Shown: positions 58,921 through 61,287 of the stretch, in pieces
Numbering within the stretch: the first letter of the stretch is position 1
Layout of the letters: every line of letters begins with the position of its first letter
DNA from: an archaeon
Lineage (GTDB): Archaea; EX4484-52; WAPT01
Direction of reading: 5' to 3'
Assembly: GCA_029258795.1 (NCBI GenBank)
Contig: JAPDKB010000002.1
Location: 64,001 to 128,000, forward strand
DNA: 64,000 nucleotides
The notes under the pieces: model-generated
Seen by the model: only the letters and a program-made list of their open reading frames with translations
Databases searched by the model: none
Told to the model about the DNA's origin: nothing
Translations under genes and position numbers: made by a program

Positions 58921-59937
58921 ATGCAGTGTAAAGACGTAATTCCACCACACGGCCATGGCCTGATGACCAACAATCGACTTATCTTCATCATGTGGGGCAG
59001 GGTGCTGTTCGGCAATGATCCGTTGTATGTTCTGAAGTATGTACCATCCAAAGGGTCAGGAGAAGATGTTCGAATTTTTAATGGTATGCGTTATCTGAAG
59101 GTGAGATCACCCATTTACGGCTACAGCAACATGATCGAAGTTCTCACGAGTGTTTGTCCAAAATATGTCGGCCAATCCCCATATTTTACTAGGAGGGTTG
59201 TTTGCATTCCGGAAGAGGACATCTCCCGCATTTTCTCGCCCGTCGAGATTGCAGAAAAAATAATCTCTGATCCTCAGGACCCGGTGGAAGAAAAATTTGT
59301 AGATTACTGCGAGTTTTTTAGAGAGCAGATTGGAGGGGGTGTAGGATTCGGCATCACTGCTTCACTTATGTTCGGAATGCACACCACCAAATCTGACATA
59401 GATCTGATAATTTACAGCCAAAACCCGCAGCAGGTCCAGCTGAAAATTTTTGAACTGATTGAAGAAGGGATGGTGTGCACAGCTCTCAGAGAAAACGAAA
59501 AGGAGAAGAGAATCGTTGAGAACGTGTTTCAGCAGAAGGTGGATGAAAGTTTCATAAAATGGCTTGTGGAGCAAAGAAGATATTACGGCTCATTGAGACA
59601 TCCGGAGATTGGTGTGGAGTGCCACCTCATGCTCCTGTCCAAGCAAACTAAGGTGATTGAACACAAGCCATGTGAAGTTAGACGCGTATGCGTTGAGGGA
59701 GAGGTGGTGAATGCTGATGAGACCTGCTTATCCGCGCCTGAATTTGAAATAAGGTGTGGGAATGAAACTTTCTGGGTGGTGTGCTATCACAGAGGTGGAG
59801 AGCTTGTGAAAACAGGTGATAGAGTTTCATTAGCGGGAGACATGATGAAATTTTCTGATGGCTCAGCATTAATAGCTCTCGTGGACTGGAACGATGACTG
59901 GCTCAGGATTTTGAGAACTGAGCAAAGCTTGCGCTGA
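58921..59937 (+). CDS. Archaeal predicted nucleotidyltransferase (COG1665-like)
   Basis: GITASLMFGMH..KSDIDLIIY motif; C-terminal OB-like region. Confidence 0.72.
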   Translation: MQCKDVIPPHGHGLMTNNRLIFIMWGRVLFGNDPLYVLKYVPSKGSGEDVRIFNGMRYLKVRSPIYGYSNMIEVLTSVCPKYVGQSPYFTRRVVCIPEEDISRIFSPVEIAEKIISDPQDPVEEKFVDYCEFFREQIGGGVGFGITASLMFGMHTTKSDIDLIIYSQNPQQVQLKIFELIEEGMVCTALRENEKEKRIVENVFQQKVDESFIKWLVEQRRYYGSLRHPEIGVECHLMLLSKQTKVIEHKPCEVRRVCVEGEVVNADETCLSAPEFEIRCGNETFWVVCYHRGGELVKTGDRVSLAGDMMKFSDGSALIALVDWNDDWLRILRTEQSLR

Positions 59938-60012
59938 GCTTCGGAAAAGAACCCTATGAAATTTTTTAAAATTACCTGCCATACTATACTCACGTTGTTA
60001 TCGTGTTTTCAC

Positions 60013-60172
60013 GGTCCCGTAGCTCAGCTGGTTGGAGCGCCGGTCTTATATGACCGCGGGAGCTAAAAATAACGGCTGTTGCTCCCGTGTCTAGGCCAGC
60101 CGGAGGTCGGGGGTTCGAAAGCCATCTAGAGAAACTGGAAAGAGAATATGGCAGAAAATCCCCCCGGGACCA
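60013..60172 (+). tRNA. tRNA-Ile(TAT) with two introns: 37/38 (60051..60097) and 59/60 (60120..60158); CCA not encoded
   Basis: Acceptor GGTCCCG/CGGGACC, A73; CCGGT-CT TAT G^A-GCCGG. BHB1 is CTTA/TAGG with GAC/GTC; BHB2 is TTCG/AGAA with GCCAT/ATGGC. Confidence 0.88.
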
Positions 60173-60213
60173 TCCTTATTCTGCCCGCATTGATATCCTA
60201 AGATTCTTAAAAT

Positions 60214-61287
60214 TTGGAGTATTATACTCACTATATGATAGTTACAGATGATGCGAAAGTATTGAAAGTTGAGGGGCACCAGCGGCATGGATATTTGATC
60301 GTTGGTGCTAAAATTTCTCCCGATATGAAGAAATACTTGGAAACGAAAGGAGAGGCAGGATACAAACCGGCTGTCAGCTTCTCTTTAAGAAGCAAGCTGG
60401 CCAGATGCGGTGCTGATGCTCGGCTATCGGGGTGGGAAATTCATGAGGACCTTCTCATGGGCAAACTGGAATATATCAATAGGGGATTGCCAATTGAATA
60501 TCGTCCGGGAGATGAGATAGGGAGGTTCTTCGGATACCATCAGAAGGAAGCTTTGAGAGGGCAAGAACTGTATGATATGGTACGTAAATGGACTCCGCAA
60601 GAGAGTGTCAGAATGAATCCTGAGGAATGGAACGAGTTTAGGGATTCCACAATAGCGCTGGAACTCCAACCCTACAAGGTATATGAGGTTAGGAAATCAA
60701 AAGAACCAGTGAGAGCACCATATATAATCGATAGCAACGAGCTTTATCTGAAGATTAAGGAAGTAACGCCAGAAGAGGTCGTTGAGGAGCTGCCTTTCGA
60801 ATCAAAAGAGCGGATGTTATCGCAGATGATGGAGGATAAGTCCCTTAAGGACACACTGTTCTGGGAGTGGCTTGCCATACAGCTATCCAAGAATGGCTTC
60901 TGTGTTGTGGAAAGCGTGGCTGAGATCGAGATTCCCGAAGGACATTATGGTCTGATACCAAGAAGGACTTCACTCTGGGGCAGCACCAATCAAGCATCTT
61001 CAGTCATAGTTGATCCTGCTCCCAAGTTTCAGGGCAAGCTACTCTATGAGATCGTTTCGGGCACGCCGGGAGAGCATCTCTCTCCAAAACGCTACGGATA
61101 CCTGCGCATCTATCCAGATACGCTCTCCCACACAGAAGAGCGCTACAGACCGGAAAAGCCGGAGAAGATGGAAACAAGGAGGGAAAGGAAGGAGAGAATG
61201 ACGACCATCTCCACAGGCGTGGCAGCATGTCCATGGCGTGGAAGATGTGAGGAGGAATCAGTTGAGGAAATTCTGGGAATGATATAG
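60214..61287 (+). CDS. Hypothetical protein with degenerate dUTPase/dCTP-deaminase-like motifs
   Basis: SLRSKLARCG, and IEIPEGHYGLIPRRTSLWG...IVDPAPKFQGKLLYEI, resemble trimeric dUTPase-fold motifs. Confidence 0.5.
   Translation: MEYYTHYMIVTDDAKVLKVEGHQRHGYLIVGAKISPDMKKYLETKGEAGYKPAVSFSLRSKLARCGADARLSGWEIHEDLLMGKLEYINRGLPIEYRPGDEIGRFFGYHQKEALRGQELYDMVRKWTPQESVRMNPEEWNEFRDSTIALELQPYKVYEVRKSKEPVRAPYIIDSNELYLKIKEVTPEEVVEELPFESKERMLSQMMEDKSLKDTLFWEWLAIQLSKNGFCVVESVAEIEIPEGHYGLIPRRTSLWGSTNQASSVIVDPAPKFQGKLLYEIVSGTPGEHLSPKRYGYLRIYPDTLSHTEERYRPEKPEKMETRRERKERMTTISTGVAACPWRGRCEEESVEEILGMI

Follow-up and report, generated by a model that had tools for sequence, protein, structure and literature searches.

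A tRNA-Ile(UAU) gene with two introns, the probable AUA reader of an archaeal lineage without TiaS

In the archaeal genome assembly GCA_029258795.1 (GTDB lineage EX4484-52; WAPT01), a tRNA gene interrupted by two introns is very probably the AUA-decoding tRNA-Ile(UAU) ("tRNA-Ile3") of this uncultivated small-genome archaeon, taking the place of tRNA-Ile2(CAU) and the agmatidine made by TiaS. The gene occupies positions 60013-60172 of a stretch of 64,000 nt (positions 64,001 to 128,000 of contig JAPDKB010000002.1, called C2 here), to which we refer as the window; its numbering is used throughout unless a contig is named. AUA is a frequent codon in this genome, and neither TiaS nor a third tRNA gene with a CAU anticodon was found.

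Structure and splicing of the gene

The interval, on the plus strand (C2:124013-124172), extends exactly from G1 to A73 of a tRNA, and CCA is not encoded, as TCC follows directly after A73. Excision of 60051-60097 and 60120-60158 by coordinates leaves a 74-nt cloverleaf that ARAGORN classifies as tRNA-Ile(tat). All stems are intact: a 7-bp acceptor stem (GGTCCCG/CGGGACC) next to the discriminator A73, the D-arm (GCTC...GAGC), the anticodon stem (CCGGT/GCCGG, with a U31-G39 wobble) and the T-arm (GGGGG/CCCCC). An initial sequence-only reading had proposed a tRNA-Ile with a UAU anticodon and two introns, and coordinates, splicing and ARAGORN all bear this out. Run on the window, ARAGORN in its default mode and Rfam at the gathering score missed the gene because of the two introns that interrupt it; the Rfam tRNA model missed it as well when searched over the whole genome at E<=1.

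Intron 1 is bounded by a strict bulge-helix-bulge (BHB) motif. Within its central helix, C32-T33-T34-A35 (60045-48) pairs with 60092-95 (4/4 pairs, one of them G-U), the bulges at 60049-51 and 60096-98 comprise 3 nt each, and the flanking helices are the anticodon stem on one side and 60052-54/60089-91, continuing into 60056-63/60081-88, on the other. The BHB scan counted four central and 3 + 3 flanking pairs, and in the RNAfold structure a 7x7 internal loop separates the anticodon stem from the helix of intron 1. For intron 2, we found 3/4 central pairs (with a G57-A mismatch), 3 + 3 flanking pairs and an intron helix GCCAT/ATGGC (BHB scan and fold). We infer that both introns are spliced in vivo.

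Archaeal BHB motifs are cleaved after the second bulge nucleotide, a rule that places canonical introns at 37/38 and agrees with the anticodon-intron pair of yeast between position 32 and intron position -3. Accordingly, A60050 is position 37, A60098 is position 38, and the mature loop reads CU-UAU-AA. The sequence-only reading had taken a clean BHB motif to fix the loop as CU UAU GA; the strict motif and the UAU stand, the GA does not. No G adjoins either splice site of intron 1, the only nearby GA (60052-53) is intronic and its exonic use would take two separate deletions, and a G at 37 is impossible by any single excision compatible with the anticodon stem. All 34 orthologues that were parsed (see below) follow the order C-T-T-A-T-A, intron, A. 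Position 37 is an ordinary A, as expected of a tRNA reading ANN codons, and the mechanism that had been built on a supposed G37 falls with it. Alternative splicing around 60039-60088 makes ARAGORN report "Ala ggc", "His gtg" or "Pro agg"; these calls were rejected, since the orthologues conserve the UAU loop.

Conservation and authenticity of the anticodon

The gene was compared by BLAST with 61 genomes (42 of the phylum and 19 other archaea), and 40 fetched loci were inspected. The same 5' exon, ending in CTTATA, was present in 35 loci from 35 genomes, 34 of which could be parsed in full, the remaining one being truncated by a contig end. All of these orthologues are interrupted at 37/38 as well, by introns 26-124 nt long, with 4/4 pairs in the central helix of 19 loci and 3/4 in that of 15 (n=34).

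A contig of a close strain, assembled independently in a different study, covers 59900-60173. It differs from the window by 2 substitutions and 1 indel upstream of the gene, by 5 substitutions and 2 indels in intron 1 and by 2 substitutions in intron 2, with zero differences in all three exons. Conserved exons combined with variable introns are exactly what a functional split tRNA gene predicts. No variant letters were seen at the anticodon in four metagenome runs (DNA contigs).

These data bear on the suspicion that UAU is an assembly or sequencing error, or that a former CAU or GAU tRNA gene is decaying here as a pseudogene, which might be raised for a gene that default ARAGORN and Rfam at its gathering score both overlook in a draft metagenomic genome. 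A C at 60047 or 60049, which would have indicated an assembly error, was not seen. TAT recurs in all 35 related loci, the contig of the other study has identical exons in spite of 7 substitutions and 2 indels within the introns, and every stem is intact. We regard the probability of error or decay as practically negligible.

The U31-G39 wobble (60044, 60099) is the last anticodon-stem pair in 32 of the 34 orthologues, with A39 in the other two (G045 and G053). Elsewhere in the genome, the corresponding pair is C31-G39 in tRNA-Ile(GAU) and A31-U39 in elongator tRNA-Met.

AUA usage and the agmatidine system

Codons were counted in 553 open reading frames (ORFs) of at least 250 codons (259,351 codons in total; simple ORF calling, contig C11 excluded). 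ATA accounts for 9086 of 18934 Ile codons (48%), corresponding to 35.0 per 1000 codons, compared with 25.9 per 1000 for ATG. With ATA read as Ile, the predicted proteins contain 7.3% Ile and 2.6% Met, which are ordinary contents; reading ATA as Met would raise Met to 6.1%, which speaks against a reassignment. There is a lesson for annotation here: an essential gene like this one, once two introns have broken it up, is overlooked by standard tRNA finders, and a genome could then wrongly look unable to read its own most-used isoleucine codon.

The draft genome consists of 23 contigs and is 96.3% complete. No match to TiaS_FLD (PF08489) was obtained in it, whereas the domain was matched in 4/4 control archaea, and when four TiaS proteins encoded at outgroup loci were searched against the genome by tblastn, the best E-value was 0.04. 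The tRNA inventory was built from plain ARAGORN (25 genes), the Rfam tRNA model (34 hits at E<=1, all accounted for) and two home-made passes. In the first of these, each of 404,240 BHB candidates was removed and ARAGORN re-run; in the second, T-loop introns were removed together with one further BHB candidate. By our own tally the set found covers about 44-46 anticodons and is not fully resolved. A third CAU tRNA gene (tRNA-Ile2) was not found in this inventory. Only two tRNAs with CAU were found, the initiator (C2:46756-46833), with A1-U72 and an anticodon stem that contains three G-C pairs, and the elongator tRNA-Met (C2 ~176577-176773, minus strand), which has introns at 37/38 and in the T-loop. 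In sum, neither component of the agmatidine system, TiaS and a CAU tRNA with Ile2 features, turned up in the genome, as anticipated by the initial suggestion that the organism may have dropped TiaS.

The 37/38 intron of the elongator tRNA-Met (~74 nt) resembles a box C/D RNA, with GTGATGA near its 5' end, GCGATGA, and a CTGA at the 3' end that overlaps the BHB helix. Intron-encoded guides for 2'-O-methylation are known for some archaeal tRNA-Trp and tRNA-Met, and judging from these motifs the present intron may be a guide for 2'-O-methylation of C34. The T-arm of this tRNA is identical to that of tRNA-Ile(UAU).

Among the candidates for further CAU tRNAs, the one that ARAGORN labels "Met cat" at C3:58917-59096 was discarded because it needs T37 and a spacer of four nucleotides from the D stem to the anticodon stem. 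The tRNA-like locus at C3:58968-59096 has a good acceptor stem and T-arm, and an 8-bp helix, CCTTCCGG/CCGGAAGG, flanks an insert of ~57 nt; a tRNA-Gly(GCC) interrupted at 32/33 or a tRNA-Arg(CCG), in either case with an unusual intron, is more likely than Met(CAU). Loose regular-expression scans for CAT, TAT and GAT anticodon arms returned mostly noise, and only loci with full tRNA context were kept.

Isoleucine identity and a model of decoding

We compared the spliced tRNA-Ile(UAU) with 21 tRNAs of the genome, namely 20 genes that ARAGORN calls without introns (of which four lie on the suspect contig C11, see below) and the spliced elongator tRNA-Met. The closest is the organism's own tRNA-Ile(GAU), identical at 63/74 positions, with the same type of acceptor stem and A73; elongator tRNA-Met comes next (60/74). 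The similarity of the anticodon loop to that of a Val(UAC) tRNA, pointed out at the outset, has little meaning, as the body of tRNA-Val(UAC) matches at 57/74 positions only.

One gene for isoleucyl-tRNA synthetase (IleRS) is present, and its R998 aligns with R999 of yeast IleRS (chain 8wnd_A). An arginine of this type, found in eukaryotic/archaeal-type IleRS, reads the carbonyl on base 34 according to a structural paper of 2024 (PMC11685878). Also encoded are Sua5 and Kae1, enzymes for N6-threonylcarbamoyladenosine (t6A) at position 37, as well as Elp3, TruD and Cbf5.

We propose that the precursor is transcribed with both introns, that EndA, represented by a single gene for a 197-aa protein, would cut both BHB motifs, and that a ligase would join the three exons, followed by CCA addition. 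IleRS, which keeps the base-34-reading arginine, would charge the product, a tRNA that shares its body and acceptor stem with the organism's tRNA-Ile(GAU). A37 would most likely be converted to t6A, and U34 would pair with the A of AUA. Candidate states of U34 are an unmodified base, a 5-substituted methyluridine (xm5U) of the Elp3 type and pseudouridine. A U34 mutant of haloarchaeal tRNA-Ile has been described to receive 5-cyanomethyluridine (cnm5U34) and to bind AUG and AUU as well (PMC3895270).

Distribution of TiaS and the UAU anticodon across archaea

The phylum was sampled through its one order, with 42 species representatives including the present genome, most of them 0.5-1.6 Mb in size. 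TiaS_FLD was matched in 0/42 of these genomes (0/28 of those at least 80% complete), compared with 10/19 of the other archaea sampled: the agmatidine system is absent from the whole phylum. A pattern combining the D-arm with the CTTATA loop found matches in 35 of all 61 genomes (40 rows, 33 judged tRNA-like and 7 not), whereas the reversed pattern used as a control gave 4 matches. Taking pattern and BLAST-verified loci together, the UAU gene could be verified in 30/42 genomes of the phylum. In the 19 outgroup archaea, tRNA-like UAU matches occurred in 7/9 TiaS-negative genomes, five of them parsed in full, and in 0/10 TiaS-positive ones, where the sole match (G052) has no tRNA D-loop. TiaS and the UAU tRNA were never seen together across the 61 genomes. 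These genomes are mutually related, and we give the counts no statistical weight.

Several points weigh against the replacement of the agmatidine system by the present gene. The expression, splicing and charging of tRNA-Ile(UAU) are predicted from DNA sequence. With 23 contigs and 96.3% completeness, tiaS or tRNA-Ile2 could sit in an unassembled part of this genome, and our home-made inventory could miss a CAU tRNA interrupted by at least two non-canonical introns if none of these lay in the T-loop. No verified UAU gene was found in 12/42 genomes of the phylum (57-89% complete), and two of the nine TiaS-negative outgroups (G046 and G054) are without a pattern match. Finally, Elp3 is encoded, and the haloarchaeal tRNA-Ile with cnm5U34 also binds AUG and AUU (PMC3895270), so that AUG might be misread.

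The second of these points can be sharpened into a rival explanation, in which tRNA-Ile(UAU) is redundant and AUA is read mostly by means of TiaS and tRNA-Ile2(CAU), encoded in the 3-4% of the genome that was not assembled. The state of the draft allows for it, the more so as tRNA genes often remain unassembled. However, TiaS is missing from all 42 genomes of the phylum, ten of which are at least 90% complete, and from every genome in which the UAU gene was seen. Redundancy appears very improbable to us, and we retain tRNA-Ile(UAU) as the AUA reader.

Possible role of the intron at 37/38

It is conceivable that the gene has the role proposed above and that its conserved 37/38 intron is functionally required. 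The intron would present U34 (and U36) within an anticodon-intron helix for a modification made on the precursor only, e.g. pseudouridine, or would shield U34 from Elp3, and reading would be limited to AUA. In the predicted precursors, C32-A35 pairs with the 3' end of the intron in 34/34 orthologues (3 or 4 of 4 pairs), U34 and A35 always lying within the central helix, and none of the 34 has lost the intron despite its varying length and sequence. The tRNA-Ile(UAU) genes of Candidatus Korarchaeum cryptofilum (PMC6000648) and of ARMAN-2, one of the archaeal Richmond Mine acidophilic nanoorganisms (PMC3239211), also contain an intron. In yeast, pseudouridine 34/36 is formed by Pus1 only as long as the precursor contains its intron, which in turn blocks formation of 5-carbamoylmethyluridine (ncm5U34; PMC11408192). 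The genome encodes Elp3, and Cbf5 and TruD are possible pseudouridine synthases.

On the other hand, pairing between anticodon and intron is a property of any canonical BHB intron, and retention is not specific to tRNA-Ile(UAU). For comparison we fetched 21 loci of tRNA-Thr(UGU), three of which were other tRNAs; the 18 with that anticodon all keep their 37/38 intron. Likewise, the 37/38 intron of tRNA-Lys(CUU) was matched through its length in 25/42 genomes. Introns kept at this site in tRNA-Thr(UGU) and tRNA-Lys(CUU) too indicate that canonical introns are simply stable in this phylum. Furthermore, no member of the Pus1/TruA family (PF01416) was found in the genome at its 96.3% completeness; 13/14 control genomes were matched, Sulfolobus acidocaldarius being the exception. 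Inspection of the sequence of intron 1 revealed no box C/D motifs, and bacterial tRNA-Ile(UAU) works with an unmodified U34 (PMC3575796). A functional requirement for the intron is, on balance, improbable, and the intron-dependent modification of U34 raised in the sequence-only reading is weakened accordingly.

The same pairing invites a comparison with eukaryotes. In every tRNA-Ile(UAU) gene examined, in the phylum and in five other TiaS-less lineages, the 37/38 intron pairs with U34-A35, and this could amount to a eukaryote-like, precursor-specific treatment of the wobble uridine, either pseudouridylation by an enzyme other than Pus1 (Cbf5 with an H/ACA guide, or TruD) or protection from Elp3. 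We give this idea little credence. If it were true, precursor-specific treatment of U34 would explain how AUA is read without misreading of AUG, and the way in which eukaryotes read AUA would be older than the eukaryotes themselves. For the question of how an archaeal U34 tRNA-Ile avoids AUG, the present organisms offer a natural test case.

The 62-nt intron of the tRNA-Lys(CUU) gene used in this comparison (gene locus C3:18520-18658) is conserved in sequence across the phylum, with BLAST identities of 75-96% through the intron, which hints at a function of its own, e.g. as a guide RNA.

Other introns, tRNA genes and features

A T-loop intron is found at the same 59/60 site of tRNA-Ile(UAU) in the two other species of the genus, and the distribution of such introns is patchy (6/34 tRNA-Ile(UAU) orthologues). 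In this genome, T-loop (59/60) introns interrupt at least 24 tRNA genes, many of the introns having ends in common; about ten begin and end with TGCTGCGG...CCGCAGCTGAAAA, which points to a single intron family that is spreading. Intron 2 of tRNA-Ile(UAU) belongs to this genome-wide set. Its 3' end, GGCAGAAAA, conforms to the type found in the 23 other T-loop introns listed for the genome. A D-loop intron is present in the tRNA-Ile(UAU) genes of two genomes (G009 and G014).

The splicing endonuclease EndA is encoded as one 197-aa protein with tRNA_int_endo_N (E 8.9e-16) and tRNA_int_endo (E 1.8e-25) domains. Its gene lies at C6:35295-35888, just downstream of tRNA-Phe(GAA), and no other gene for a splicing endonuclease was found. 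One would not expect a subunit of homotetramer size in a genome where relaxed, non-canonical BHB introns abound, and a diverged second subunit may have been overlooked.

Two odd Rfam hits resolved into tRNA-Val(CAC) (C2:52503-52624) and tRNA-Arg(CCU) (C3:79312-79436), both with D-loop introns; ARAGORN mis-calls the former as Phe(aaa). Contig C11 (9.3 kb) harbours a tight cluster of four intron-less tRNA genes, Thr-Gly-Tyr-Thr (C11:165-495), which account for three of the six top Rfam scores of the genome. We take this cluster to resemble the bacterial thrU-tyrU-glyT-thrT arrangement, and the contig may be a bacterial contamination of the bin.

The tRNA-Ile(UAU) gene itself sits in an intergenic gap between ORFs 58921-59937 and 60214-61287, both without a Pfam match; its wider neighbours are an FtsZ gene upstream and a Cdc6/Orc1 gene downstream. 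The coordinates of its parts are compiled in Table 1.

Table 1. Parts of the tRNA-Ile(UAU) gene and its putative promoter, in window coordinates
Feature	Position	Strand	Basis
TATA-like AT-rich box, putative promoter, ~40 nt upstream of the tRNA 5' end	59960..59973	+	sequence only (AATTTTTTAAAATT)
5' exon, positions 1-37: acceptor 5' strand GGTCCCG, D-arm, anticodon stem CCGGT, loop C32 U33 U34 A35 U36 A37	60013..60050	+	same CTTATA-ending 5' exon in 35 related loci
Anticodon TAT (UAU), reads AUA	60047..60049	+	ARAGORN on spliced sequence; 34/34 parsed orthologues
Intron 1, 47 nt, canonical 37/38, strict BHB with both flanking helices (hBHBh')	60051..60097	+	BHB scan class 4-3-3; RNAfold
Middle exon, positions 38-59: A38, anticodon stem 3' strand GCCGG, variable loop AGGTC, T-stem GGGGG, T-loop TTCGAA	60098..60119	+	
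Intron 2, 39 nt, T-loop 59/60, relaxed BHB	60120..60158	+	BHB scan class 3-3-3; fold
3' exon, positions 60-73: T60, T-stem CCCCC, acceptor 3' strand CGGGACC, discriminator A73	60159..60172	+	

Comparison with known AUA readers

The tRNA-Ile(UAU) gene of Nanoarchaeum equitans is known to contain an intron. In N. equitans (PMC8450103) and K. cryptofilum (PMC6000648), tRNA-Ile3(UAU) replaces tRNA-Ile2(CAU), as proposed here. In K. cryptofilum the closest relative of the UAU gene is, again as here, the tRNA-Ile(GAU) of the same genome (PMC6000648). Both organisms belong to different phyla, and one intron is reported for them, in contrast to the two found here.

A close parallel in the literature is provided by the ARMAN lineages. 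ARMAN-2, -4 and -5 possess tRNA-Ile(UAU) and lack both tRNA-Ile(CAU) and TiaS (Fujishima et al. 2011, PMC3239211). The sequence-only reading had restricted the UAU type to a few lineages such as Nanoarchaeum and Korarchaeum; these two are indeed known, and the list was incomplete, the ARMAN cases having been reported in 2011. ARMAN and the present organism are both members of the DPANN archaea (Diapherotrites, Parvarchaeota, Aenigmarchaeota, Nanoarchaeota, together with Nanohaloarchaeota), share the lack of TiaS and of tRNA-Ile(CAU) along with a 37/38 intron in a strict hBHBh' motif, and have genomes rich in non-canonical introns, including those at 59/60 (PMC3239211). The precursor of ARMAN-2 tRNA-Ile(UAU) was cut in vitro by the organism's own endonuclease, and its intron at 37/38 measures 25 nt (PMC3239211), as opposed to 47 nt here; the present gene has a second intron in its T-loop. 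A further difference concerns the endonuclease, a three-unit epsilon2 enzyme in ARMAN-2 (PMC3239211), whereas the only EndA found here is a 197-aa protein with a single N-terminal and a single catalytic domain. The present organism belongs to a different, heat-associated lineage. Apart from the ARMAN paper (PMC3239211), our literature searches turned up no publication that states a DPANN-wide loss of TiaS.

The eukaryotic tRNA-Ile(UAU), as described for yeast, combines the UAU anticodon with an obligatory 37/38 intron that pairs with the anticodon (PMC11408192), and that of Cyanidioschyzon merolae has three introns, including introns in the D- and T-arms (PMC9602550). The IleRS of eukaryotes is of the same eukaryotic/archaeal type, with the base-34-reading arginine (PMC11685878). 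Unlike the situation here, where no Pus1/TruA homologue was found, eukaryotes use Pus1 to convert U34 and U36 to pseudouridine on the precursor (PMC11408192). In the bacterium Mycoplasma mobile, AUA is likewise read directly by a tRNA-Ile2(UAU) after loss of the C34-modifying enzyme (TilS there, TiaS here; PMC3575796). That tRNA differs in having no intron and an unmodified U34, and its specificity comes from a change at Arg865 of IleRS together with a property of the ribosome (PMC3575796). The strategy is already known from related archaea, of which the present organism is another member in a further lineage, and with it one more whole GTDB phylum joins the archaea that gave up agmatidine for a UAU anticodon.

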